12,710 nt of DNA from IMG/VR virus record IMGVR_UViG_3300002460_002611; one strand, given 5' to 3'. The notes below the pieces were generated by a model. The model saw only the letters and a list, made by a program, of their open reading frames with translations, did no database searches and had not been told where the DNA came from. Each line of letters opens with the position of its first letter. The first letter of the stretch is position 1. Shown here in pieces: positions 1,446-12,710 of this stretch. Both the position numbers and the translations under genes were made by a program. The stretch comes from a virus.

Positions 1446-1580
1446 ATGTGTGAGTACGTGTACGCAGCATTATTTGCTGCATTCATGGTCGTGATGGTCG
1501 TCGTCGTGCTTGTGCTTGATGTTGTTGAGAGACGCGCAAAGAAGCGAAAGCAAAAGAAACAGGAGAACACGTGGATCTGA
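1446..1580 (+). CDS. Possible small membrane protein (44 aa), below the ORF-track length cutoff: a hydrophobic helix followed by a Lys/Arg-rich tail
   Basis: ATG at 1446, 6 nt after the upstream stop. Translation 'MCEYVYAALFAAFMVVMVVVVLVLDVVERRAKKRKQKKQENTWI*' is a single TM-like segment plus a basic C-terminus (positive-inside). It overlaps the next start (GTG 1571) by 10 nt. Confidence 0.3.
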   Translation: MCEYVYAALFAAFMVVMVVVVLVLDVVERRAKKRKQKKQENTWI

Positions 1581-1864
1581 ACGATGATATCGTCTTCACT
1601 GATGGACAGACGTGGCACCTGGGCGATTTGCTGGTCCTTAAAGCTCACTCAAGACGAAGTAATGTGATAGATGGACATCTTAGAGCTGTTTTGACTGATG
1701 AGCCACTCATTCTCTTGGGCTTCTCTGGAGTAGGAATATGTAGACAGGCACAGTTTATGTCAGCACGCTATGGCCTATGCTGGAGAAACGTCTGGCGAGA
1801 CTTTAGAGACAACGTATCGCTTGTTCAGAGGCTTGACATGAACCCTGGAGCGTTCCATGCTTAG
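1571..1864 (+). CDS. Member of the tandem small-protein paralog family (GDL / GHL / EPLIxLG / GxCWR motifs); GTG start
   Basis: 'GQTWHLGDLLVL...DGHLRAVLTDEPLILLGFSGV...FMSARYGLCWRNVW...VSLVQRLD'. An AGGAG lies 5 nt before the GTG. Confidence 0.7.
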   Translation: MDLNDDIVFTDGQTWHLGDLLVLKAHSRRSNVIDGHLRAVLTDEPLILLGFSGVGICRQAQFMSARYGLCWRNVWRDFRDNVSLVQRLDMNPGAFHA

Positions 1865-1981
1865 GATGGTGCTAAGGGCTGGAGATGCCTTGCTCCTTTC
1901 AGCTGGAAGGGCGATGCTGTGGTGTGCGTTATTCGTGGCCATGGCATGGGCAGAGATCGACGGCCCCAGGAGAGGTGACGA

Positions 1982-2248
1982 ATGATGGGCTTTAGGAACA
2001 GCAACCAGGATGCACGCATCCGCGTGAGGTCAGAGGGGGCGTCGATCGCCGTTGATACGGCATACAGGGACCCGGGGACGCTGCAGGCACGGGCCGATGT
2101 GCGTGAACGTTACGACGTTGAGACGGGGAGGTCATTGACGGGCCTGTCCGTCAGGACAGCAGGAGGCAGGAGCATCCGCTTCACGGGCTCCGAGGCTCGG
2201 ACGCTATATCGCATCCTGGATGAGGCCGTGAACGGTTCGAGGGTGTAA
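1982..2248 (+). CDS. Hypothetical protein (88 aa), no recognisable domain; not an obvious member of the paralog family
   Basis: A 'ggagaggtga' SD sits 4 nt before ATG 1982, and the coding-like composition is continuous with its neighbours. The protein is Arg-rich and shows no motif I recognise. Confidence 0.5.
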   Translation: MMGFRNSNQDARIRVRSEGASIAVDTAYRDPGTLQARADVRERYDVETGRSLTGLSVRTAGGRSIRFTGSEARTLYRILDEAVNGSRV

Positions 2249-2251
2249 CAC

Positions 2252-2518
2252 ATGAGGGCAGCAGAGCTGTGTCCGGGCGGCCTGTGTAGCAGCTCTGCTG
2301 TCTCTGTGATAGACTCACAGGGTAGAACCCATCTCTTCTCTGACGACAAACCGTTGTGGACAGCGTTGTTCATCAGACGTTATCACGTTAAGTGGGGGTT
2401 GGTCGGTCCGTATGAAGAGTTTCTGTTCATCTCGCCCCAACTCGGGGTGATGAAGGTGACCACAACAAGCCTGCAATATATCATGTTTGTCCAATCGCTA
2501 GACGATTGTGTGGAGTGA
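2252..2518 (+). CDS. Hypothetical protein, possibly a divergent member of the paralog family
   Basis: Starts 3 nt after the previous stop. The C-terminus 'YIMFVQSLDD' resembles the family tail 'LTLVSSLD / VSLVQRLD'. Weak 'PGGLCS', 'QGRTHL' and 'PLWTALFI' segments echo the GDL, GHL and EPLIFLG motifs. Confidence 0.45.
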   Translation: MRAAELCPGGLCSSSAVSVIDSQGRTHLFSDDKPLWTALFIRRYHVKWGLVGPYEEFLFISPQLGVMKVTTTSLQYIMFVQSLDDCVE

Positions 2519-2523
2519 ATGCA

Positions 2524-2832
2524 ATGCTGCTTGACCTCCCTTCTACGCTCATCCCAGGCGCCCTCTATGCCCTAGAGGGTGAGATTGGGCTCACAACAGA
2601 GACCACGCCCCGAGGAAGGTCTCAGCACTTGCTGTTACGTATTGGTGCGATACGTCATGCATCGGTAGGACAAGTGGAACCGCTGGTCTTTATCAAGACT
2701 ACGTTGGCTGGAAAGAACGCGCCAGGCATGTCAATGCACTGGTTCATGTCGAGGCTGGGTCCGTGCTACAGGAACACGCTCCCTACGAGCCTTTATCTCG
2801 TGCAGGAGGTCGCTGATGCCGACAGTGAATGA
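2524..2832 (+). CDS. Member of the paralog family. The ORF track starts at TTG 2506; ATG 2524 is preferred, with GGAG 8 nt upstream.
   Basis: 'LIPGALYAL...EPLVFIKT...FMSRLGPCYRN'. The 3' end overlaps the next gene's start. Confidence 0.65.
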   Translation: MLLDLPSTLIPGALYALEGEIGLTTETTPRGRSQHLLLRIGAIRHASVGQVEPLVFIKTTLAGKNAPGMSMHWFMSRLGPCYRNTLPTSLYLVQEVADADSE

Positions 2833-3898
2833 GATTGAGAGAAGGTTTCTTGTGAAGGAGATCGATCTCAAGCATCGTGCACTCAAGGACAACAACGTCT
2901 GGAACGGGTGTGAGGTCCATCTCACGCAGGGCTACCTTGACATCCCGGGCAGCATGCGCGTGAGGTCATACACGTTCAGGGGCACGGGCCTCCAGAGGCA
3001 TGAGCTGACGAGGAAGACGGGCAAGGGCCTCCTTCGGGTTGAGCAGAATGCAGACATCTCTGCCGAGGCTGCGCAGATGCTGCTGGGCTCGACGCCCTTC
3101 ACGATCAGCAAGACGCGCCGCATGTGTGATGGGTGGGAGGTTGACTTCTTCCACGGGCGGCTTGAGGGCCTCATCATGGCAGAGAAGGAGCTCCAGCATC
3201 CCGACGAGCCTTGTCCCATTCCGCCCTGGATAGCAGATGCTGTTGAGGTGACAGACTTCATCAGCAACAAACAGCTCGCCCGAGCCGCGTTCCTGCTGTC
3301 ATCTGATGAGCCTCTCTCTATCCTTGATGCGCGTCGTCTCAGGCGCGTGGTCCTGACGGGTGCACCGTGCTCGGGCAAGAGCGCGTTCGTGGAGCAGTTC
3401 AGGGGGACGCCTGGGTTCCATTGTGTGCCAGAGGTTGCGACGATTGTCATGGGGCAGCTCAATGTCATGCCCGAGTCAGGAGCAGCAAGCTTCCAGCGGA
3501 CGCTCTACCGCATGCAGCACCTGTTCGAGGACGCTGCTGAGGTCCAGGCCCAAAGGGACGGCAACGGGACAGTGGTCATCGACAGAGGGTCGCTCGATGG
3601 GGCCGCCTTCATGCCGGGAGGGCTGGATGAATACACAACCCTCGTTCAGACAGACGCTCTGTCGGAGCTCGGCAGGTATGACGCTGTCATCTTCCTCAGG
3701 CTGCCCCCGCGTGATGTGTGGGAGAGGAACAGGGCGAACAATGCAATCAGGCGTGAGACGTGGGAGCAGGCCCTCGTGCTTGAGGAGAGGCTGCTTGATG
3801 TGTGGTCCAGGCATCCCAACCTCATCGTTGTCGGAGGCAGGCCCACGTGGGAGGAGAGGTTCGCTGACATCATTGGACATGTCAGCTGCAGGTTGTAG
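2816..3898 (+). CDS. Two-domain enzyme: N-terminal CYTH / triphosphate-tunnel metalloenzyme domain fused to a C-terminal P-loop kinase of the NadR-AAA_28 / uridine-kinase-like type
   Basis: The N-terminus 'VNEIERRFLVKEID' is the ExExK CYTH signature (nt 2831-2854). Walker A 'VVLTGAPCSGKSAF' lies at nt ~3352-3390, followed by 'VPEVAT' and an 'IDRGSLDGAAF' region typical of NadR-type nucleoside kinases. AGGAGG sits 6 nt before ATG 2816. Confidence 0.8.
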   Translation: MPTVNEIERRFLVKEIDLKHRALKDNNVWNGCEVHLTQGYLDIPGSMRVRSYTFRGTGLQRHELTRKTGKGLLRVEQNADISAEAAQMLLGSTPFTISKTRRMCDGWEVDFFHGRLEGLIMAEKELQHPDEPCPIPPWIADAVEVTDFISNKQLARAAFLLSSDEPLSILDARRLRRVVLTGAPCSGKSAFVEQFRGTPGFHCVPEVATIVMGQLNVMPESGAASFQRTLYRMQHLFEDAAEVQAQRDGNGTVVIDRGSLDGAAFMPGGLDEYTTLVQTDALSELGRYDAVIFLRLPPRDVWERNRANNAIRRETWEQALVLEERLLDVWSRHPNLIVVGGRPTWEERFADIIGHVSCRL

Positions 3899-3907
3899 GA
3901 GCGTCAG

Positions 3908-4192
3908 ATGAATGAGAAGTTTGATGTGGGAGACCTTGTCGGCATAGTGGGTGTCAGCTACAACGGGCTGTCTGACGACGGACACCTCCTGAATGGAGGA
4001 TACTGCGATGTGGGTTGCCAGTGCGGCGCCTCGCCACCCGCACACCACATGCTTCTGCTATACATGGGCAGCGACTACAACTACAAGCATTTCGAATCTA
4101 TCCATTGGTTCCTGACGCAGACGGGGGAGCGCTGCTGGCGATACTCGACAGAGCACCTCATACTCGTGTCATCACATGATGGGATGCTATGA
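3908..4192 (+). CDS. Paralog family member, Cys-rich-insert subgroup
   Basis: 'FDVGDLVGIVGV...DGHLLNGGYCDVGCQCG...HHMLLLYMG...WFLTQTGERCWRY...LILVSSHD'. AGGAG lies 6 nt upstream, and the next gene starts by ATGA overlap. Confidence 0.75.
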   Translation: MNEKFDVGDLVGIVGVSYNGLSDDGHLLNGGYCDVGCQCGASPPAHHMLLLYMGSDYNYKHFESIHWFLTQTGERCWRYSTEHLILVSSHDGML

Positions 4193-4461
4193 CGTTGGGC
4201 TTGGGCGTAGAGATGCAGCCCGGTGACCTCGTGGGTCTCGCTGGCGTCAGGACAGTCTCATTGCAGACAGATGGGTGGTTGTCTAACTGTAAGATGTGTG
4301 TGGGATCGTGTGGATGCTGGTCGGGGCAGCCGCATGTGTGGTTGCTGTATCTGGAGCGTAAAGGATACTGTAATTACTTCCTGACATCTGCGGGCTCAAT
4401 CTGCTTCCGCTACGGAAGCAGGCGTGAGTATGTCGTGGTCTCCAGAGACAGGATATTGTGA
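4189..4461 (+). CDS. Paralog family member, Cys-rich-insert subgroup
   Basis: 'QPGDLVGLAGV...DGWLSNCKMCVGSCGCW...VWLLYLE...YFLTSAGSICFRYG'. ATGA overlaps at both ends. Confidence 0.75.
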   Translation: MTLGLGVEMQPGDLVGLAGVRTVSLQTDGWLSNCKMCVGSCGCWSGQPHVWLLYLERKGYCNYFLTSAGSICFRYGSRREYVVVSRDRIL

Positions 4462-4751
4462 TGACGAAAAGTGCTGCAGACATCAAGTCGGGAGACCTTG
4501 TGGGTGTGAGATCGGGGAGCATGTTTGAGCTGGACCCAGAAGGGCACCTGATGAATGGGTTCTGTTCAAGGGTTGGCTGCACGTGCCACCATGAAGAGGG
4601 TGGGGTGGTGCACATGCTGTTGCTCTACATGGGCCCTAGCACTCACATTGCCGATGTTTCGGGTCCAGTCCATACGTTCCTGATGCCGACAGGACAGGCA
4701 TGCTGGCGCTACGGATACAACAACCTGACGCTGGTCTCATCGTTGGACTAG
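4458..4751 (+). CDS. Paralog family member, Cys-rich-insert subgroup
   Basis: 'KSGDLVGVRSG...EGHLMNGFCSRVGCTCHH...VHMLLLYMG...FLMPTGQACWRYG...LTLVSSLD'. Confidence 0.75.
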   Translation: MMTKSAADIKSGDLVGVRSGSMFELDPEGHLMNGFCSRVGCTCHHEEGGVVHMLLLYMGPSTHIADVSGPVHTFLMPTGQACWRYGYNNLTLVSSLD

Positions 4752-4752
4752 G

Positions 4753-5148
4753 ATGTTCGCCCTTACTGGGACGCTACGTTACGACATCATGCTGGGCTAC
4801 GGACACAGGCTCGTCGTTGATGTTGAAAGGGACGTCGCGAGGTTCTATGCAGCATTGGTCCCAAGGAGCGTGGGCATCAGGTCGCAACGCTATGCGCCCC
4901 ATGTGACAGTCGTCAGGCTTGAGACGCCCAGCATGATGTCTGCATGGGGCATGAGGCAGGGCCAGCGTGTGAGCATGTGGTATGACCCGTACGTCTACAA
5001 CGACGAGAGGTATTACTGGCTTCGCGTGCACTCAGATGAGCTTCTTGACGTCAGGAAGGAGCTCGGGCTGCCATCATCGAGCAGGTTGAGCAGGCCGCCT
5101 GACGGCGTCGAGTGCTTCCACATGACGATAGGGAACACAAAGCCATGA
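4753..5148 (+). CDS. Small 2H-phosphoesterase-superfamily protein (LigT / cyclic phosphodiesterase / Acb1-like), 131 aa
   Basis: Two H-x-T-x motifs flanked by hydrophobics with typical spacing: 'APHVTVVRL' (His50, nt 4900-4902) and 'ECFHMTIGN' (His123, nt 5119-5121). It starts 2 nt after the upstream stop and ends in an ATGA overlap with the next gene. Confidence 0.7.
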   Translation: MFALTGTLRYDIMLGYGHRLVVDVERDVARFYAALVPRSVGIRSQRYAPHVTVVRLETPSMMSAWGMRQGQRVSMWYDPYVYNDERYYWLRVHSDELLDVRKELGLPSSSRLSRPPDGVECFHMTIGNTKP

Positions 5149-5477
5149 GCAAAAGAGAGAAGCTGAGGCTTGCGCAGCTGGTCCAGGGCGACCTGCTGCA
5201 GCTGCGTTGCTACGATGCATCACGACTAGAGATCGGTGACAACGAAGGTCACCTGTGCGGAGACATCTACGATCCTGAACGTCATGACCTCTTCGACGCC
5301 AAGCGCTTCGACAGGTGCACCGCACTCGTCCCGTTCATCTACCTGGGTCCTCATGATGTCAAGCATTCCAACACAGCAGCCAGGCTCCTGTCACCCACAC
5401 ACGGTGTCTGCTGGCGTTATGTGTGCCATGCCCTAGAGCTGGCGCAGCCCGTGTCAGCGTGTGAGGAGGACCAGTGA
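5145..5477 (+). CDS. Paralog family member. The ORF track start is GTG 5112; ATG 5145 is preferred because it forms an ATGA overlap with the 2H gene stop.
   Basis: 'LVQGDLLQL...EGHLCGD...VPFIYLGP...LLSPTHGVCWRYV'. Confidence 0.7.
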   Translation: MSKREKLRLAQLVQGDLLQLRCYDASRLEIGDNEGHLCGDIYDPERHDLFDAKRFDRCTALVPFIYLGPHDVKHSNTAARLLSPTHGVCWRYVCHALELAQPVSACEEDQ

Positions 5478-5478
5478 C

Positions 5479-5802
5479 ATGCATATGAATGAGCTACACA
5501 ACTACAAGAGCCCGACGGGTGAGGTCTGGAACGCGGGTGACCTGTGTGCGCTCACGATCACTGGCCCATTTTCTCTACGTGTAGAAGTTGAATACGTGAC
5601 CCAGGGTCACCTTATCGGGGCCACTGGTGGCTTGGATGAGCCCCTCATCTTCTTGGGTGTGTCATACAACGATGACTACAGCCGCTTGATCGCGTATCTC
5701 TTGTCTTTTAGGTTCGGTGCGTGTTGGAGGTTTGTGTGGTCCGACCAGACGGGTGGGTTGAAGCGTGTCCAGCAGCTGCAGCCTGATGTGTCGTCGCAGT
5801 GA
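5479..5802 (+). CDS. Paralog family member. The track start is GTG 5461; ATG 5479 is preferred, with AGGAGGA 8 nt upstream and 2 nt after the upstream stop.
   Basis: 'GEVWNAGDLCAL...QGHLIGATGGLDEPLIFLGV...LLSFRFGACWRFVW'. Confidence 0.7.
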   Translation: MHMNELHNYKSPTGEVWNAGDLCALTITGPFSLRVEVEYVTQGHLIGATGGLDEPLIFLGVSYNDDYSRLIAYLLSFRFGACWRFVWSDQTGGLKRVQQLQPDVSSQ

Positions 5803-5825
5803 GTGAAGGCCGAGGAGAACGTAAC

Positions 5826-6131
5826 ATGGACAGCCTCATATGCAACGGAGAGACATGGGCGGTCGGTGACATGTGCAGCTATGATGGTAGAAATGCCTTA
5901 GGCCAGTTTTGCATCGACCAACACAACAGCTGGTATCCCAACCACCTGCTAGGCAGGCCTGCTATCCCAGAGCCCCTCATCCTCATGGCGATAGAGCGGC
6001 ATGAGATACTCACGGCTGCACACGTCGTGTGGTTCATGTCTGTGACGTTCGGGCTGTGTTGGCGCTTGGTGTGGCCGGATGATGCAGACGATGTCGTGCT
6101 ATGTCAGAAGCAGTCTGAGACTGCACCATGA
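5826..6131 (+). CDS. Paralog family member. The track start is GTG 5799; ATG 5826 is preferred, with GAGGAG 8 nt upstream.
   Basis: 'GETWAVGDMCSY...NHLLGRPAIPEPLILMAI...WFMSVTFGLCWRLVW'. Confidence 0.7.
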   Translation: MDSLICNGETWAVGDMCSYDGRNALGQFCIDQHNSWYPNHLLGRPAIPEPLILMAIERHEILTAAHVVWFMSVTFGLCWRLVWPDDADDVVLCQKQSETAP

Positions 6132-6463
6132 TGGTGCCCAGGCTTGAACAGTTCCTGCAATCACGTGATGAGACGTGGCATGCAGGCGACCTGTGCGCGT
6201 TTGTGGAAGTGCACGGTGTGGACCTCACGCCGTATGTGGATGAAGAAGGTCACCTCCTTGGCAGTCCTATTGAGCCCATGCCCCTCATCTTTCTGGGCGT
6301 CTGTTGGTCAGAGAACAGAGAATACAGGAAGGTATGGTTCATATCGCCCGTGCACGGTCCCTGCTATAGAATCATCAATGACGCATCAAGGGGTCGGGTG
6401 CATCATGTGAGTCGGGCGCAGACGATCGCTAGCGTCACAAGGAGCATGCATCATGACACATGA
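6128..6463 (+). CDS. Paralog family member (ATGA overlap with the upstream gene)
   Basis: 'DETWHAGDLCAF...EGHLLGSPIEPMPLIFLGV...WFISPVHGPCYRI'. Confidence 0.7.
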   Translation: MMVPRLEQFLQSRDETWHAGDLCAFVEVHGVDLTPYVDEEGHLLGSPIEPMPLIFLGVCWSENREYRKVWFISPVHGPCYRIINDASRGRVHHVSRAQTIASVTRSMHHDT

Positions 6464-6710
6464 TATGCCTCTTCCGGGCGACCTGCTTATGTTCGCCACG
6501 AGCAATTGGTCAGTGCCTGACATGAGGCCCAACGGTTTCCTCTATGCCCGCCATACGTTGACATCGAACAATCAGCTAGCTGATTGCTTTGAGCCAGTCA
6601 TGATGCTATGTGACGAGGAGACGACGGGTCGCGTTCACCTGCTATCTGCTAGGTTTGGTCTGTGCTGGTGGTGGCGAGATTGGCTATTGTATCGTCATGT
6701 CGGCGCCTAG
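6453..6710 (+). CDS. Paralog family member (11-nt overlap with the upstream gene; alternative ATG at 6465)
   Basis: 'LPGDLLMF...NGFLYAR...EPVMMLCDEE...HLLSARFGLCWWW'. AAGGAG lies 8 nt before ATG 6453. Confidence 0.65.
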   Translation: MTHDMPLPGDLLMFATSNWSVPDMRPNGFLYARHTLTSNNQLADCFEPVMMLCDEETTGRVHLLSARFGLCWWWRDWLLYRHVGA

Positions 6711-6740
6711 CCTGGCTCATTGGGGTGCAGCCACTTAGAG

Positions 6741-6762
6741 CAGCTGGTGACAGCTGGTGACA
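6741..6762. repeat. Perfect tandem duplication of the 10-mer 'cagctggtga' (2 copies plus 'ca') in the only sizeable intergenic gap inside the paralog array
   Basis: 'cagctggtgacagctggtgaca' read directly from the sequence; it lies just upstream of, or overlapping, the start of the 6757/6766 gene. Confidence 0.6.
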
Positions 6763-6765
6763 TAC

Positions 6766-7083
6766 ATGGGTGATAAGCTACAGCCGGGTGCCCTGCTTGC
6801 GTTAGTCATGAAGCCTGGGTTCATGCCCGCTGCGACAGATGACGGGCAGCTGTATGCACAGGGGCTCATAGGTCTAGCTGCGCCGTGGTTGCAGAGGCAC
6901 GTTGAGCCTATGATCCTGCTTGGCCGTGAGCTGATCCAGTCGCGTGTATCTTATAAGCTCATGCTGCTGTCAGCTAGTCTAGGCCCATGCTGGTGTTGGA
7001 ACTTGGTATTGAGTGATGATGACATATTTTCATGTCGCCTCATCGTGGTGAGAGCCCATCCAGGTGGAGCAACTAATGGATGA
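6766..7083 (+). CDS. Paralog family member (the track start is GTG 6757; ATG 6766 is equally plausible)
   Basis: 'QPGALLAL...DGQLYAQ...EPMILLGREL...LLSASLGPCWCWN'. Confidence 0.65.
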   Translation: MGDKLQPGALLALVMKPGFMPAATDDGQLYAQGLIGLAAPWLQRHVEPMILLGRELIQSRVSYKLMLLSASLGPCWCWNLVLSDDDIFSCRLIVVRAHPGGATNG

Positions 7084-7336
7084 CATCAACCTGGATGGCT
7101 GCATCATTGAGGCGGGCGACCTTCTGGCGTTCAATGCTCCCGCGTGTGTGGAGGACGACCAGCTCCTGCATGATACTTCTTTTGGTGTGTATGTGACAGA
7201 GCTGCTTATCTACGTGGGCGCTGAGAGGTTCCCAGGAAAACCAGACTCGAGGTTCTGGTTCCTGTCCATCAGGTTCGGCCTGTGCTTCAAATGGACGAAC
7301 AGCTACCTGACGTTGGTGCAGCGAAGGGGATGGTGA
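7076..7336 (+). CDS. Paralog family member. The track start is GTG 7064; ATG 7076 is preferred, with GGTGGAG 6 nt upstream.
   Basis: 'IEAGDLLAF...DDQLLHD...ELLIYVGAER...WFLSIRFGLCFKW...YLTLVQRRGW'. Confidence 0.7.
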   Translation: MDDINLDGCIIEAGDLLAFNAPACVEDDQLLHDTSFGVYVTELLIYVGAERFPGKPDSRFWFLSIRFGLCFKWTNSYLTLVQRRGW

Positions 7337-7445: not shown

Positions 7446-10097
7446 ATGGAATTGAGCGACAATCGAACACAGAACGAACTTGTTCTCTCGCCAGGTGAAT
7501 TTGCATTGAGCCAGGACACCACATCAGGCATCCTGAAGTGCATCACAGGCCCTGGGATTTTGCAAATTACTGGGCAGGAAACGCCCGTAGCGTTTGACCC
7601 AAAGACGGGTCGCTTTGCTCGCTGTGATCTGGCTACAGCTGTCCAGCAGTTTGCGCTTGCGAAGCAGGGCCAATATATGGTCCTTTCAAATCCGGCGCAG
7701 AACGGAAAGCAACCTGTCGTCAAGGAGAAGAGCGCAGCCGCTGAGCTCAACATGGGTCAGAAGGTCAACATCCAGGGACCCATCACGTTTGCACTGTGGC
7801 CCGGCCAGAGCGCGACAGTGATTGAGGGCCACAACCTCAGGTCGAACCAATACCTTCGTATCCGTGTCTACGATGAGGATGCTGCTCGTGAGAACTGGAC
7901 GAAGGGTGTCGTGAAGGCTGCGCAGATCGCCGGTGGCGCGTCTGATGATGCTGACGCTGGAAAGGGAAAGGCGCAGACAAAGGGACACACTCAAAAGGGC
8001 CTCTTTGAGGCAGTGCCTGGTGACCTTGCTGTGGGTAAGCACTACATCGTTCGAGGCGATGAGTTCTCGTTCTACATCCCGCCGACAGGCGTCGAGGTCG
8101 TCACGGATGACAACGGGTCCTACGTTCGTGATGCCACCACCCTTGAGCGCCTTGAGTATTGCATCCTGATCGATGAGAACGGGAGCAAGCGCTACGAGCA
8201 GGGACCTAAGGTCGTCTTTCCGACGCCGACGGAGAGGTTCTTCGAGGAGCAGGAGAAGGGGCAGCGCATCTGCTCGTTCAAGCCCATTGAGCTGAATGAG
8301 ATACAGGGACTACACGTCAAGGTCATCTCTGACTACGCTGAGGCTGACGGGACCCAGCGGAAGGAGGGTGAGGAGCTCTTCATCAGGGGGTCTGAGACGC
8401 CCATCTACTTTCCGCGGCCTGAGCATGCTCCTGTGAAGTATGATGGGAAGTTCAAGCACTTCGCCACGGCTGTCCCGGCGGGTGAGGCTCGCTACGTCCT
8501 GGAGAGGAAGACGGGCGCGATCAGGACCGTCAAGGGACCCTGCATGCTACTTCCTGACCCTCGGACCGAGGTGATCGTCAGGCGTGTCCTCAGCGACAAG
8601 CAGTGCAACCTGTGGTATCCTGGCAACCTGGAGGCGCAGCGTTACAACTCAACGTTGCGTGAGCTGATGCGTGTCACGCCCACGACGAGGCCCTCCGGGA
8701 CCGTCTCTGAGGGAGAGGTGACGAGGTCGAAGAAGGTCAAGCAGAGCACGTACGGGAACGTCTCTGGGTTCGCCGACAGCAGCCTCATCAGCTCTGACAG
8801 CGCGCTCTTTGGAACCGACGAGTTCAGCAGGGGCAGCACCTACACTGAGCCTAGGACCGTCACGCTTGACACCAAGTTCGGGGGCGTGCCCACGATCGAG
8901 GTCTGGACGGGATACGCTGTCCTCATCATCGACAAGCAGGGGAACAGGCGCGTTGAGATCGGGCCCAAGACAATTCAGCTTGAGTACGATGAGCAGCTCG
9001 AGGTCCTGTCGATGAGCACGGGCAAGCCGAAGAACACGGACCAGCTTGTGCAGACGGTCTACCTGCGCGTAAAGAACAACCAGATCGGTGATGTTGTGAC
9101 GGCTGAGACGCGGGACCATGTCAACGTCTCCTTCAAGGTCTCCCTCAGGGGTGACTTTACGGATGAGCCAGGGCGCTGGTTTGAGTGTGAGAACTACGTC
9201 AAGCTGGTGTGCGACCACGTCAGGTCGGTCCTCAAGGCCGAGGTCAGGAAGCTGAAGGTGGAGGAGATATACAGCGACCCGACGTCGATCGTGAGGGACG
9301 CCATCCTGGGTGCTCGCGGTGGTGAGGACGTCTCACGACGGGGCATGCTGTTCGATGAGAACGGGTTCCACATCCTCGATGTTGAGGTCCTCGACTTCAA
9401 GGTGGGCGATGACCGCATCGCACAGATGCTTGACAACACTCAGCACAGTGTGGTTGAGTCAAACATCAGCCTTGCCCTGGCGGAGAAGAAGCTTGAGATC
9501 GACAGGCGACAGGAGGAGATCGACAGGGAGCGCGTCCAGCTCAAGACTGAGACTGAGCGCCTCAATGCGACGACGAAGGCTGACCTCGATAGGTTCAACG
9601 TGGACCTTGAGACCGAGAGGGTTGCTCGCCACCTGAAGCTGTCGTTGGACCGCATCTCGTCGCAGATCGACGAGACGACGAAGAGGGAGGAGATGCAGGC
9701 CGTTGAGCAACGCCTCCTTGATGAGAAGCAGGGGGCTGAGCTGGCGCGGCAGAAGAAGGACGCTGACGTCAGGAGCAGCATCGACCGCGTCATCCAGGAG
9801 CTGGAGCTCGCCCGGTCACGGGAGGAGACTGAGCACGTCATCCAGAGGTTCCAGGCTGCCAACGGACCCCTCGCAGAGGCGCTGCTGGCCCTGGGCAACC
9901 AGGACACGGTCGTCAAGCTCGCTGAGGCCCTGAGCGTCCAGAGCTTCATCGGGGGCAAGACGGTCGTCGATGTGGTGCAGAAGGTCTTCGCTGGATCGCC
10001 CGCAGCGGGTCTCGTTGAAAAGGCGCTGCAACGGGCGCTCCCTGCCTCCGTCGAGGCGAACGGAGCATCGGGAGGCACCAAGCGGGCTTCTGCGTAG
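7446..10097 (+). CDS. MVP: Major vault protein (MVP) homologue, full length (883 aa): N-terminal MVP repeats, SPFH-like shoulder, long cap-helix coiled coil and cap-ring region
   Basis: Length and architecture match eukaryotic MVP (~890 aa). Collinear motif matches to human MVP as I recall it: 'LEVLSMSTGKPK' vs 'FTVLSLSAGRPK'; 'VVTAETRDHV' vs 'VITIETADHA'; N-terminal 'LSPGEFALSQDTTSGILKCITGPGILQITGQE' vs '[31 protein letters not shown]'; shoulder 'FHILDVEVLDFKVGDDRIAQMLDNTQHSVVESN' vs '[33 protein letters not shown]'. This is followed by a charged heptad-like region, 'LAEKKLEIDRRQEEIDRERVQLKTETERL...', in the cap-helix position. AAGGAGG precedes the start (ATG 7446, or TTG 7452 with better spacing). 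Confidence 0.85.
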   Translation: MELSDNRTQNELVLSPGEFALSQDTTSGILKCITGPGILQITGQETPVAFDPKTGRFARCDLATAVQQFALAKQGQYMVLSNPAQNGKQPVVKEKSAAAELNMGQKVNIQGPITFALWPGQSATVIEGHNLRSNQYLRIRVYDEDAARENWTKGVVKAAQIAGGASDDADAGKGKAQTKGHTQKGLFEAVPGDLAVGKHYIVRGDEFSFYIPPTGVEVVTDDNGSYVRDATTLERLEYCILIDENGSKRYEQGPKVVFPTPTERFFEEQEKGQRICSFKPIELNEIQGLHVKVISDYAEADGTQRKEGEELFIRGSETPIYFPRPEHAPVKYDGKFKHFATAVPAGEARYVLERKTGAIRTVKGPCMLLPDPRTEVIVRRVLSDKQCNLWYPGNLEAQRYNSTLRELMRVTPTTRPSGTVSEGEVTRSKKVKQSTYGNVSGFADSSLISSDSALFGTDEFSRGSTYTEPRTVTLDTKFGGVPTIEVWTGYAVLIIDKQGNRRVEIGPKTIQLEYDEQLEVLSMSTGKPKNTDQLVQTVYLRVKNNQIGDVVTAETRDHVNVSFKVSLRGDFTDEPGRWFECENYVKLVCDHVRSVLKAEVRKLKVEEIYSDPTSIVRDAILGARGGEDVSRRGMLFDENGFHILDVEVLDFKVGDDRIAQMLDNTQHSVVESNISLALAEKKLEIDRRQEEIDRERVQLKTETERLNATTKADLDRFNVDLETERVARHLKLSLDRISSQIDETTKREEMQAVEQRLLDEKQGAELARQKKDADVRSSIDRVIQELELARSREETEHVIQRFQAANGPLAEALLALGNQDTVVKLAEALSVQSFIGGKTVVDVVQKVFAGSPAAGLVEKALQRALPASVEANGASGGTKRASA

Positions 10098-10119
10098 GAC
10101 AGGTGGATGTGCTAGGTAG

Positions 10120-10181
10120 GGCGTGAGGGTCCTCACGCCGGTGTGGGATGGGGCATCATCTTCATGGGTGGTGCCCCATCC
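10120..10181 (+). terminator. Two consecutive GC-rich hairpins immediately downstream of the MVP stop; candidate transcription terminator or RNA structure (no clean U-tract)
   Basis: Hairpin 1: 'ggcgtgagg' (10120-10128) / 'cctcacgcc' (10131-10139) are perfect reverse complements with a tiny loop. Hairpin 2: 'ggatggggca' (10146-10155) / 'tgccccatcc' (10172-10181) form a perfect 10-bp stem with a 16-nt loop, followed by 'gtgtattctgtg'. Confidence 0.3.
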
Positions 10182-10222
10182 GTGTATTCTGTGACCACAG
10201 CGTGGTATGATATCTGGTATAG

Positions 10223-10567
10223 ATGGGACTAAACGTGGGAGATGCTGTGCGGCCTGTCGTGGCCCTTGAGCTGAGGGAGCTTGAGGACGTCTACGGAAAG
10301 GCATTCAACCAGGCCATCCCAGGACGCTCAAAGAAGAACGTGACACGTGATGGTCACACGTTCCTTGACGGCTACCTGGGCATCTACCTCGGACCCAAGT
10401 ATCGTCAGATGCGTGACAGGCGGGGCGATGCGGGCTGGGTGCACAGGCTATTCCACTGCTTTCTGTTCGGGGGCGTGGAGGTGATGATAGATCCGCAGCA
10501 CATAGAGCTCGTAGCTGTCGAGCAGGCAGAGACAAGCGCAGACGATCCAACCGACGAGGAGGACTGA
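10223..10567 (+). CDS. Hypothetical protein (114 aa), acidic C-terminus; possibly a very divergent relative of the paralog family
   Basis: N-terminal 'GLNVGDAV' resembles the 'LNVGDLL' start of the truncated family member at 12513. 'DGHTFLDGYLGIYLGPKY' loosely echoes the GHL / LIFLG motifs. It ends in a TGATG overlap with the next gene. Confidence 0.5.
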   Translation: MGLNVGDAVRPVVALELRELEDVYGKAFNQAIPGRSKKNVTRDGHTFLDGYLGIYLGPKYRQMRDRRGDAGWVHRLFHCFLFGGVEVMIDPQHIELVAVEQAETSADDPTDEED

Positions 10568-11397
10568 TGACGATCGACATTGAGGCCGTTCCCTACAGGA
10601 CAACGCTTGACCAGATCGATGTGCCCGATGCGCTGAAGAGGCGCTATGCCTTCCACTCAGACCACGACAGGCGTCTCATGTTCGTCACGAGCCTGTTTGG
10701 CGGGCAGGGCATTGCACCATCGACAGTCACGCTGTTGACGGGCAACCCGGGCGCCGGAAAGAGCACCCTTGCTGTCCAGATGGCACAGGCATTGCATGCA
10801 CGAAGCGACTGCCTGGTCCTGTTCAACGGGCTGGAGGAGAGCCTGCACCAGACGCGCATTGTCGCTGACCGACTGTTCAGGAACTCCACACCCCCATTCT
10901 TCGTCGGGACAGACACGCTCGTGACGAGCCGGAACCCAAAGATGAACGGGCGCGTGCAGGCTGAGACGAAGTCGGGAAAGCGTCGCGCTGTGCTGGACCA
11001 CGTCCAGGTCCTTGCTGCTGCGCATCCGAACAGACAGCCCATCCTGATCGTGGACTCGCTGCAGTGCCTCGATGATGGACACTATCCCGATGGGTTTATC
11101 AACAGGTCCAGCACCCTGCGTGCATTGAAGCTCGTCAGGAGCTTCTGCAAGCAGACGTACGCGGCTGCCATCCTGATCGGGCAGGTTACCAAGAGCGGGG
11201 ATCCCGCTGGAGACAACAAACTAATTCACAACATCGACGTTCATATCCACCTGGGCATCGACACCAAAGAAAAGTCAGAGACCCAGGGCATGCGGATAGC
11301 GACGACCAGAAAGAACCGTTTTGGAGTTGCAGGGCAAACACATATCTGCAACATGTGGCCAACAGGTCTGGTCGAAGAGAACTCGTTGGTTACGTAG
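10567..11397 (+). CDS. RadA/Sms-like RecA-superfamily ATPase, core ATPase domain only (no N-terminal zinc finger or C-terminal Lon-like domain)
   Basis: Walker A 'LLTGNPGAGKSTLAVQMA' (nt ~10735-10790); 'LFNGLEES' EES motif of the KaiC/RadA clade; Walker B 'PILIVDSLQ'; 'IGQVTKSGDPAGDNKLIHNIDVHIHL' aligns with RadA 'GHVTKEGxIAGPxxLEHxVD'; hallmark RadA/Sms 'KNRFG' at nt 11311-11325. Confidence 0.8.
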   Translation: MTIDIEAVPYRTTLDQIDVPDALKRRYAFHSDHDRRLMFVTSLFGGQGIAPSTVTLLTGNPGAGKSTLAVQMAQALHARSDCLVLFNGLEESLHQTRIVADRLFRNSTPPFFVGTDTLVTSRNPKMNGRVQAETKSGKRRAVLDHVQVLAAAHPNRQPILIVDSLQCLDDGHYPDGFINRSSTLRALKLVRSFCKQTYAAAILIGQVTKSGDPAGDNKLIHNIDVHIHLGIDTKEKSETQGMRIATTRKNRFGVAGQTHICNMWPTGLVEENSLVT

Positions 11398-12304
11398 GGC
11401 AAATCTCTTACGCACATTTCTGCATCAAGCGGCATAGTTATGATGCATGAAAAGAAAAGGTCGTTCTGACCAAAGGAAGTATCACTTCACATACAAGACA
11501 ACATGCCTTGTAACAGGAAAGTACTACTACGGCATGCATAGCACAGACAAGATGGACGATGACTATCTGGGTTCAGGACAGATCCTTCGCTACTCAGTGA
11601 AGAAATACGGACCTGAGAATCACGTACGTGAGGTGTTACAGCTGTTCTCTGATAGAGCATCGCTCATCCAAGGTGAGAAGGAGCTTGTGACAGAGAGTGT
11701 GGCTGCAGGACCCATGTGTATGAACATGTGCGCAGGAGGTGCGACATCAAGGGGTGGTCCTCGACAGAAGAGACCCTACAAGCCTAGGGGACCCATGCCC
11801 GAGGAGACGAGGCTTAAAATATCACTATCGAATATGGGAAAGAAGCACAGCAAAGCCACGAGACGAAAGATGTCGAAGGCCAAGCTGGGAAAGACGTGGA
11901 CTTGGAACAAACCGATGTCAGATGAGCAGAAGAAGCAGATATCGGATACGTTGAAGGGCAAGAAGCTCTCTCCCTGGAACAAGGGGATAAAGATGGGTCC
12001 TCTATCTGATGAACAAAAGCAGAAACTTTCAATGTCCTTGAAGGGAAAAAACAAGGGCAAGAAGATGTCTGACGCGCAGAAAGAGCTTCTACGCCAGATC
12101 AATCTAGGAAAGAAGCACACTGCGGAAGCTAAGGCTAGGATGTCAGCTTCAAAAAAAGGGAAGAAAAAACCACCTCGCTCAGCTGAGCATTGTAAGAACA
12201 TGTCTGAGGCGCATAAGGGAAAAGTCCTATCAGAAGAACATAAGCGAAACATCAGTGAAGGTATGAAGATAGCCTGTGCTAAAAAGAAACAAGAGAGTAA
12301 GTGA
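11398..12304 (+). mobile_element. Probable homing-endonuclease gene insertion (compositionally distinct cassette) between the RadA-like gene and a paralog-family gene
   Basis: The AT-rich 49-nt leader (11398-11446) and the HEG ORF have a codon and GC profile clearly different from the flanks (many AAA/AAG/AGA/ATA codons), typical of a laterally mobile HEG. Confidence 0.6.
11447..12304 (+). CDS. GIY-YIG homing endonuclease with C-terminal array of NUMOD3 DNA-binding repeats (free-standing HEG)
   Basis: N-terminal 'KYHFTYKTTCLVTGKYYYGMHSTDKMDDDYLGSGQILRYSVKKYGPENHVREVLQLFSDRASLIQGEKELV' matches the GIY...YIG / conserved-Glu layout of T4 Seg / I-TevI-like enzymes. The C-terminal half has at least 6 reiterations of 'S/HxEQKxKIS.xxKGKK' (NUMOD3). 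GC content is markedly lower than in neighbouring genes. Confidence 0.85.
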   Translation: MKRKGRSDQRKYHFTYKTTCLVTGKYYYGMHSTDKMDDDYLGSGQILRYSVKKYGPENHVREVLQLFSDRASLIQGEKELVTESVAAGPMCMNMCAGGATSRGGPRQKRPYKPRGPMPEETRLKISLSNMGKKHSKATRRKMSKAKLGKTWTWNKPMSDEQKKQISDTLKGKKLSPWNKGIKMGPLSDEQKQKLSMSLKGKNKGKKMSDAQKELLRQINLGKKHTAEAKARMSASKKGKKKPPRSAEHCKNMSEAHKGKVLSEEHKRNISEGMKIACAKKKQESK

Positions 12305-12510
12305 CATCGCAGCTTAAATTGCGCCAGGTGCGCACGGGTGACCTCATTGAGATCGTCGAGGGTAGGCCTGAGTTGGTCCTGTCTGATTGCCTGACGAGTT
12401 CAGACAATTACATGCATGTCCTGTGGGGTGACGGCACACAGAGGACCTGGTATACAAGCGAGATCGTGTGTCGTCGCATCCTTGCCCGTGCTGAGGACAT
12501 GGAGCCTTGA
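12301..12510 (+). CDS. Hypothetical small protein (69 aa), start uncertain (GTG 12301 / TTG 12319 / GTG 12328); KOW/SH3-like N-terminal 'TGDLIEIVEG' motif
   Basis: Starts overlapping the HEG stop. 'VRTGDLIEIVEGRPELVLSD' resembles the N-terminal motif of the paralog family but lacks the C-terminal CWR motif. Confidence 0.45.
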   Translation: MTSQLKLRQVRTGDLIEIVEGRPELVLSDCLTSSDNYMHVLWGDGTQRTWYTSEIVCRRILARAEDMEP

Positions 12511-12512
12511 CG

Positions 12513-12710
12513 ATGAATGACCTCAACGTGGGCGACCTGCTGTCTCTGACGTACTTTGAGCTGCCCGTGCTCGTTGTCTGTGCATCGCCCCTGCGCGTGC
12601 TCCATGCTGATCGACGCTGTGAGGAGCTGTATCGAGGTCGCTTTGTGAAGATGCGCTGGCCTGACCGCAGGCTGGCGACAGCTGACGACTTCTGGCAGGA
12701 GGAGATGGAT
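12513..12710 (+). CDS. 3'-truncated CDS (runs off the window end); another member of the paralog family
   Basis: ATG at 12513, 2 nt after the upstream stop. Translation 'MNDLNVGDLLSLTYFELPVLVVCASPLRVLHADRRCEELYRGRFVKMRWPDRRLATADDFWQEEMD' with no stop before nt 12710. The 'VGDLLSL' N-terminal motif matches the family. Confidence 0.55.
   Translation, partial: MNDLNVGDLLSLTYFELPVLVVCASPLRVLHADRRCEELYRGRFVKMRWPDRRLATADDFWQEEMD

Follow-up and report, generated by a model that had tools for sequence, protein, structure and literature searches.

The gene at the locus and its predicted product

The IMG/VR virus record IMGVR_UViG_3300002460_002611 is a stretch of 12,710 nucleotides, referred to here as the window, which consists of a run of genes on the same strand and belongs to a large uncultivated phage-like element with a GC content of about 57%. 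It is 99.99-100% identical to contigs from groundwater metagenomes (Rifle aquifer), which are up to 128 kb long; a megablast search with the whole window against deposited phages returned no relative at the DNA level. The present analysis concerns a homing endonuclease gene (HEG) located at 11447-12304 on the plus strand, an intact open reading frame (ORF) of 285 residues, which adjoins the 3' end of a gene for a RadA/KaiC-like P-loop ATPase (10567-11397, plus strand, 276 residues; PF06745, AAA_25). The ATPase stop codon at 11395-11397 is followed by a spacer, or leader, at 11398-11446 on the same strand and then by the HEG start; the initial annotation had described this leader as AT-rich and 49 nucleotides long, and its length is correct, while its AT-richness is only mild (GC 0.449). 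At the other end, the HEG stop codon TGA (12302-12304) overlaps by four nucleotides (GTGA) the GTG start (12301) of the next small gene, as originally noted. This gene, which encodes 69 residues (12301-12510, plus strand), has native composition, with a GC content of 0.557 and a GC content at third codon positions (GC3) of 0.657, lies outside the cassette and has no homologue in the related lineages described below. On more than ten public contigs the same HEG boundaries were assigned independently. One caller began the HEG at Met30, which would remove the conserved N-terminus; since the alignment with homologues is conserved from about residue 5, the 285-residue form is the correct one.

Sequence comparison and structure modelling both identify the product as a Seg-type GIY-YIG homing endonuclease with a tail of NUMOD3 repeats and a putative nuclease activity. 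The C-terminal half matches Pfam NUMOD3 (PF07460) with 63.5 bits, against a cut-off of 20.4, and the whole protein matches PHROG 314, annotated as "homing endonuclease", at 6e-46. A tblastn search against GenBank phages retrieved 860 records, mostly from T4-like phages, which are annotated as Seg-like GIY-YIG homing endonucleases and show 30-34% identity.

The putative GIY-YIG catalytic domain comprises about residues 10-100 (11474-11746, plus strand) and contains the motifs FTY (Y16) and YYG (Y27 and G29), whose two tyrosines have the spacing of about 10-11 residues typical of the GIY and YIG motifs, followed by H31, E77 and N93. These six residues are invariant in an alignment of 22 sequences; in the same alignment the subfamily also displays invariant D38, Y40 and G42-S43-G44, together with a nearly invariant R70. 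A search of the PDB with the single HEG sequence gave no match and only the profile built from the 22 sequences succeeded, with the catalytic domain of I-TevI as best match (1LN0/1MK0, E 0.0024); in the profile alignment to 1LN0, Y16/Y27/E77/N93 correspond to Y6/Y17/E75/N90 of I-TevI. The AlphaFold model agrees with this assignment: residues 11-90 have a predicted local distance difference test score (pLDDT) of 95-98 and adopt a beta-beta-alpha-beta-alpha order, with strands at 12-20, 26-33 and 59-67 and helices at 45-54 and 70-80, in keeping with the alpha/beta fold and three-stranded antiparallel sheet of the GIY-YIG superfamily. The top Foldseek match of the model in the PDB is 1MK0 (probability 1.00, template modelling score, TM, 0.63, 95/97 residues); considered together, 1MK0 and 1LN0 are matched with probabilities of 1.00 and 0.97, TM of 0.61-0.64 and 93-95 of about 97 residues.

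In the model, a disordered linker (residues 101-116) separates the catalytic domain from tandem NUMOD3-type repeats, predicted to bind DNA, at about residues 117-275 (11795-12271, plus strand). These consist of roughly eight units, each formed by a helix plus a GKK motif; indeed, about eight short helices are modelled, from helix 119-129 to helix 263-284, split by G-K/R loops of low pLDDT. A regular expression finds four strict NUMOD3 units, the remaining ones being visible in the sequence, and the internal direct repeats of the DNA (D1, D3, D5 and D6) mirror the units.

The Pfam GIY-YIG models speak against the assignment, since they remain below threshold: PF19835 (SegE_GIY-YIG) reaches 18.6 bits against a required 25 (E 0.0022) and PF01541 gives no match. 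These scores would fit a catalytically dead GIY-YIG/NUMOD3 protein acting as a DNA-binding regulator only, as would the region of I-TevI R27 (Arg27), which forms an unaligned insertion in the alignment to the hidden Markov model (HMM), with its counterpart in the HEG protein left unplaced. The Pfam threshold, however, is a detection criterion and not a defining feature of the family, and homologues of the HEG at 29-36% identity do carry precomputed PF01541 or PF19835 matches. Moreover, the protein has all four catalytic residues (Tyr, Tyr, Glu and Asn), none of which varies in the subfamily, and the N-terminal domain is modelled very confidently as an I-TevI-like fold; a dead protein is therefore extremely improbable.

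No Rfam match was found in or around the HEG, either at gathering threshold or at E<=1, group I introns included. Since, in addition, the ATPase ORF shows no truncation when compared with its orthologues, the HEG is free-standing, neither intron- nor intein-borne; the 69-residue ORF is also complete. The initial annotation as a free-standing GIY-YIG/NUMOD3 homing endonuclease is thus upheld by the NUMOD3, phrog_314 and Seg matches, by the invariant residues, by the I-TevI fold and by the lack of an intron. A search for target-site duplications or flanking repeats was negative, the only repeats detected being the internal NUMOD3 units. As for expression, no sigma-70-like promoter was found in 10000-12710; a possible hairpin formed by 11421-11427 with 11441-11447 would cover the HEG start codon, yet the fold of 11380-11480 (-24.8 kcal/mol) is not significant when compared with shuffled sequence (z = -1.64). 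Expression therefore probably occurs by read-through from the ATPase operon.

Composition and distribution among related lineages

The HEG has the lowest GC content of all genes of the window, 0.467, with a GC3 of 0.539; the 44 neighbouring genes have a mean GC of 0.558 (standard deviation 0.033) and a mean GC3 of 0.657. The lowest value for 300 nucleotides in the whole window, 0.423, lies at 12001-12300, inside the HEG. The HEG protein contains 18% lysine, and the composition expected for such a protein was obtained by simulating its amino-acid sequence with local codon usage: the expected GC is 0.529 and the expected GC3 0.719 +/- 0.025, from which the observed GC3 deviates with z = -7.15. 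The Lys-rich protein, and not codon choice, thus accounts for roughly a third of the deficit in GC (0.558 to 0.529). The codons over-used in the HEG are AAA, AGA, ATA, CTA, GGA, TCA, ACA and GTA. Sliding-window GC and codon-usage calculations agree with the initial description of a gene of lower GC rich in AAA, AGA and ATA. That description had also set the HEG apart from all surrounding genes in its codon usage: its GC3 deviation is the most extreme of the 45 genes, the next ones having z = -5.09 and -4.86, but two other small genes are clearly deviant. These are found at 1571-1864 and, on another contig, at L011:15878-16300 (GC3 z = -4.9 and -5.1), and may also be recent acquisitions.

Homologues of the ATPase comprise a near-identical group and, at 44-58% identity, a second one whose contigs reach 170 kb. 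Nine lineages, including that of the window, were compared; they share the succession of a Major Vault Protein (MVP)-like gene, a gene of about 106 residues and the ATPase gene. The complete shared order is a MoxR-like AAA_5 gene, a DUF2201 metallopeptidase/VWA gene, small genes, the MVP-like gene, a gene of about 106-127 residues, the ATPase gene, small genes and an AAA_28 gene. The ATPase orthologues of the nine lineages are 47-58% identical and are always preceded by the gene of about 106-127 residues. A scan of IMG/VR with the ATPase gave no relatives and one with the HEG only distant NUMOD3 fragments; a scan of JGI metagenomes with the ATPase yielded one contig only, near-identical, carrying the HEG and also present among those from the exact look-ups described below.

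Three of the nine lineages have a HEG directly after the ATPase gene and in the same orientation: the window lineage (285 residues), L020/L021 (281 residues) and L039 (267 residues), the last one being the closest homologue of the window HEG, at 46% identity. The six others (L019, L022/L023, L024, L035/L036, L037 and L038) do not have it, and in these relatives the ATPase gene is directly followed by unrelated small genes. A tblastn search at E<=10 revealed no HEG remnant after the ATPase gene of the HEG-less relatives, including a 235-nucleotide gap in L035; its single match was to an intact HEG at a different place in L022. The three carriers do not group on a neighbour-joining tree of the ATPase; their ATPases are 47-52% identical among themselves and 55-58% identical to those of HEG-less lineages. 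In each carrier the GC3 of the HEG is far below that of the flanking ATPase gene: 0.54 and 0.73 in the window, 0.42 and 0.80 in L020, 0.38 and 0.65 in L039.

This distribution could also be produced by an old resident gene, inherited vertically from a common ancestor and lost repeatedly, with a low GC content caused by the abundance of lysine in the protein and by weak selection under poor expression rather than by foreign origin. Indeed, three lineages that diverged deeply have a HEG at one position and in one orientation, HEG identity between them (42-46%) is not above that of the ATPase (47-52%) or of the MVP-like gene (63%), and the GC deficit is in part a matter of amino-acid composition. 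However, the GC3 of the HEG lies 0.18-0.38 below its flanks in all three lineages, whose genomes range in GC from 0.46 to 0.63, and over such a time third-position GC should have equilibrated with the local value; deep vertical inheritance is for this reason the less likely course. In addition, with carriers ungrouped on the ATPase tree the gene would have to have been lost independently three or four times at the least, and the empty sites contain no remnants. An old resident is accordingly improbable, and the distribution is best read as the outcome of repeated invasions, in which members of a mobile HEG family entered one preferred site. The initial proposal of an inserted mobile cassette is sustained by the non-native codon usage, by the six lineages of nine without the HEG and by the three carriers that do not group.

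The comparison with HEG-less genomes, from which the insertion site was expected to emerge, established absence of the HEG in those six lineages but provided neither the insertion boundaries nor a close empty site. In the nearest genomes without the HEG the ATPase is only 55-58% identical and the genes that follow it are not homologous: no significant homology was detected between the genes downstream in the window and those of the HEG-less relatives, and the junction could not be pinned down.

Mobility of the family is further supported by related Seg-like HEGs elsewhere in this group of contigs: one at L022:4077-4802, on the minus strand, just upstream of the MVP-like gene, and one at L041:1343-2338, on the plus strand, between the MoxR-like AAA_5 and DUF2201 genes. 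The syntenic contigs (L019, L020, L022, L024, L035, L037 and L038) span a GC range of 0.35-0.63, unusually wide for one syntenic phage group, and some of the syntenic relatives carry a gene for a class-I tRNA synthetase (PF00579), a histone-deacetylase-like protein or an amidohydrolase.

Strain variation around the gene

Exact look-ups recovered 23 contigs with the HEG protein and 19 with the downstream gene, ten places being shown for each look-up; the HEG is in place in all ten of them in both cases. It is thus fixed in the sampled population, where there is currently no empty target. Over most of their length the strains share about 99.9% identity, interrupted by localised islands dense in single-nucleotide polymorphisms (SNPs). 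Between two of the densest such islands lies a core at 11209-12362 (1154 bp) in which no strain with an intact HEG has any SNP; it begins 189 nucleotides before the end of the ATPase gene, takes in the leader and the entire HEG and ends 62 nucleotides into the 69-residue gene. The left island, in the ATPase gene (10698-11208), contains 27-39 substitutions, almost all synonymous; the right one, in the 69-residue gene (12363-12432), contains 11 substitutions in 70 nucleotides (contigs L008 and L010). On each side the divergent blocks have two alternative limits, 11034 and 11208 to the left of the core and 12363 and 12678 to its right.

In L008 the ATPase gene has 34 synonymous and 2 non-synonymous changes and the HEG has 0 synonymous ones. 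This contig is 4.4% diverged from the window over about 2.5 kb on the left and 93 nucleotides on the right, and at this rate the probability of finding no SNP in 1154 bp is 2e-23; the gene of about 106 residues, which contains indels and is out of register, was excluded from the comparison. Since synonymous changes are absent too, the use of an exact-protein look-up cannot explain the lack of changes in the HEG. Several contigs break at the islands, L012 ending at 12362 and L008 and L010 at 12455. An SNP-free core between islands is compatible with homing, without being proof of it, and 11209-12362 is a candidate for the minimal co-conversion tract.

The T4 enzymes SegA-G spread by "intronless homing", which produces variable co-conversion tracts (PMC2988022), and by analogy with them a similar course can be proposed here. 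During co-infection the enzyme would introduce a double-strand cut in or near the region of the ATPase and downstream genes of a related HEG-less genome; the break would then be resected, and repair would copy the HEG-carrying genome, by which the HEG and its flanks would be transferred together (co-conversion). The ATPase gene would accordingly be either the carrier of the homing site or its neighbour. At this locus the activity of the protein as a nuclease, the place where it would cleave, and homing rather than ordinary recombination as the cause of the population pattern are all presumptive.

Other features of the data weigh against a HEG that homes, or has recently homed, at this site. 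Exact look-ups with the HEG, the ATPase and the 69-residue gene revealed no empty site among near strains and, with no HEG-less near relative, neither the insertion boundaries nor an actual homing event can be demonstrated. The HEG-carrying contigs were in part selected by the exact-protein look-up itself. Long SNP-free tracts are the rule in this population and SNP islands occur elsewhere too; the pattern near the HEG could therefore arise from mosaic recombination of the ordinary kind, or the metagenome contigs may be chimeras of strains, several of them breaking exactly at the islands. On the trees, the window HEG is not clearly clustered with those of L020 and L039: the HEG neighbour-joining trees, which have no support values, are star-like, with L020 and L039 forming a pair. 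Finally, both the stop/start overlap and the fixation in the population are also expected of a domesticated gene.

Outside the HEG region, an island of dense SNPs and gene replacement was observed at L001:14054-14554 (equivalent to window positions 15500-16000), where some strains have genes of 75 and 64 residues and others genes of 81 and 105; mosaic exchange is thus not confined to the HEG flanks. In L002:1783-2043, compared with window 10249-10556, there is no alignable gene of about 106 residues, and the interval between the MVP-like and ATPase genes is about 200 nucleotides shorter and non-homologous. In L032 (1353-1362, corresponding to window 12171, 12178 and 12180) three clustered substitutions were found, one of which changes Ser245 from TCA to TAA with loss of the last 41 residues; this truncation reflects either a HEG that has begun to decay or a mistake in the assembly.

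A domesticated HEG-derived nuclease, fixed, co-expressed and kept for a benefit to the phage such as exclusion of the markers of competing co-infecting phages, or for another nuclease role that benefits the host, would no longer be spreading. The HEG is intact in every recovered contig, its overlap with the next start (GTGA) suggests integration in an operon, and no promoter of its own was detected; moreover, Seg enzymes of T4 do cause marker exclusion (PMC2988022), and a further report links a Seg enzyme to immune evasion (PMC13096335). On the other hand, the codon usage is still strongly non-native, most related lineages have no HEG, the premature stop in L032 suggests relaxed constraint, and a selfish HEG that spreads successfully would likewise be expected to end up fixed. 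Domestication is therefore considered unlikely, although less so than the old-resident explanation. The HEG is with good probability a free-standing Seg-like GIY-YIG homing endonuclease gene inserted just 3' of the RadA/KaiC-like ATPase gene.

A stronger proposal, that the three HEGs located after the ATPase gene are one Seg-like lineage homing repeatedly and specifically to this site in large uncultivated phages that have diverged widely (GC 0.35-0.63), and that the SNP-free core is the direct footprint of ongoing co-conversion, is more doubtful and can be put forward only tentatively. As for the timing, the view of the initial annotation that the cassette looks recently inserted is supported only in part, in the sense that the gene is not ancestral: the un-ameliorated GC3 does argue against deep ancestral inheritance, whereas the presence of the HEG in all recovered contigs, the lack of a near empty site and homologues at <=46% identity do not favour a recent event. 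The missing close HEG-less allele limits the claim of recent insertion and has no bearing on the class of the gene.

Neighbouring genes and known homing systems

The window also contains an array of small paralogous genes, and the initial annotation had seen similar genes on both sides of the HEG, which might have split the array. The family consists of 12 genes of 86-112 residues (1571-1864, 2524-2832, 3908-4751 and 5145-7336), namely 11 members within 1571-7336 plus the gene at 2524-2832, recognised by the family HMM at E 3.7e-7; they share the pattern GDL ... L(I/L)(F/Y)(L/M)G ... G.CWR and have no Pfam or PHROG match. The HMM was built from the 11 array members and searched against about 160 proteins, with true members scoring 1e-20 to 1e-30; it did not match the genes at 10247-10567 (E 3.7) and 12301-12510 (E 0.35) or the gene starting at 12507 (E 0.32), and BLASTP found no link between the family and the flanking genes at 10247-10567 and 12301-12510. 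The genes downstream of the ATPase gene have at most an N-terminal GDL tripeptide in common with the array; they vary among lineages without detectable homology, and in HEG-less relatives unrelated genes are found there. The upstream gene, which more likely starts at 10247 than at 10223, is the conserved partner just upstream of the ATPase gene in every related lineage (28-36% identity). As the flanking genes fall outside the family, a split of the array by the HEG was rejected.

The array itself is interrupted by a 2H-phosphoesterase-like gene (4753-5148), and its copy number varies between strains, since L001 is without two or three members that are kept in the window and in L012 (for example 4189-4461). 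Among the other genes of the plus strand, 7446-10097 encodes the MVP-like protein, whose 883 residues include matches to vault repeat domains and to the shoulder domain of Major Vault Protein from eukaryotes (PF11978, 1e-18). All related phage-like contigs have this protein, at 62-67% identity, and such a vault-like protein is unusual in a phage genome. Just after it lies a strong terminator-like hairpin (10146-10181, plus strand; stem of 16 bp, 9 GC pairs). A CYTH and AAA_28 fusion protein is encoded at 2816-3898 and a DUF2201 metallopeptidase/VWA protein at 34-1440, both on the plus strand, the latter with a MoxR-like AAA_5 partner upstream in the relatives; further downstream, L001:15813-16997 encodes an RNA ligase of the T4 Rnl1 type. 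The CYTH and AAA_28 fusion, the DUF2201 protein, the Rnl1-type ligase and the 2H phosphoesterase may together be a hint of an RNA-repair module.

The HEG of the window is a further representative of the free-standing GIY-YIG homing endonucleases of the Seg type, which are well known, and leaves existing knowledge on them unchanged. The value of its identification lies chiefly in annotation: a mobile, probably dispensable cassette is recognised in an uncharacterised groundwater phage, and the 3' flank of the RadA-like ATPase gene is marked as a recurrent invasion site. The HEG also accounts for the local GC trough and probably explains why assembly breaks and strain polymorphism cluster right beside it. 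If co-conversion is indeed at work, recombination among co-infecting strains of this phage group could conveniently be followed at the locus, which would serve as a natural marker; if homing to this site was both repeated and specific, it would be one of the few cases of HEG-driven gene conversion that can be read from metagenomic strain variation.

Two recent or classical settings invite comparison besides that of the T4 Seg enzymes. Barth, Dunham and Seed (2023) described T5orf172 and HNH HEGs in phage ICP1, as well as "HEG islands" of more than 10 kb, with HEGs adjoining essential genes and marking the limits of genetic exchange (PMC10055350). In a similar way, the HEG of the window adjoins a conserved, core-like gene and sits, in a natural phage population, at a junction between SNP-free and SNP-dense sequence; differently from ICP1, a single GIY-YIG HEG is present here and the core measures about 1.15 kb. 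I-TevI, the endonuclease of the T4 td intron and structural archetype of the GIY-YIG homing endonucleases, is the best PDB match of the HEG protein by profile and by fold, and the two share a modular organisation of catalytic domain, flexible linker and DNA-binding domain, at a sequence identity of about 14%. However, the gene of I-TevI lies in an intron and the enzyme cleaves no more than about 25 bp from its insertion site, whereas the HEG is not located in an intron; furthermore, the tail of I-TevI is made of a zinc finger, a minor-groove helix and a helix-turn-helix, while that of the HEG protein is made of about eight NUMOD3 repeats.

The closest parallel is offered by SegA-SegG of T4. 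As in that system, a free-standing gene lies between conserved phage genes and encodes a GIY-YIG domain at the N-terminus and a DNA-binding region at the C-terminus; at a fixed locus the gene is present in some related phages and absent from others, and an identical core is bordered by diverged flanks, as co-conversion would give (PMC2988022). The differences concern the setting: the protein is only 30-34% identical to any Seg protein of a cultured phage, its activity and cleavage site are presumptive, and it occurs in an uncultivated groundwater phage of about 57% GC that has no deposited relative at the DNA level. Its neighbour and presumed target, the RadA/KaiC-like ATPase gene, is not a known target of the Seg enzymes.

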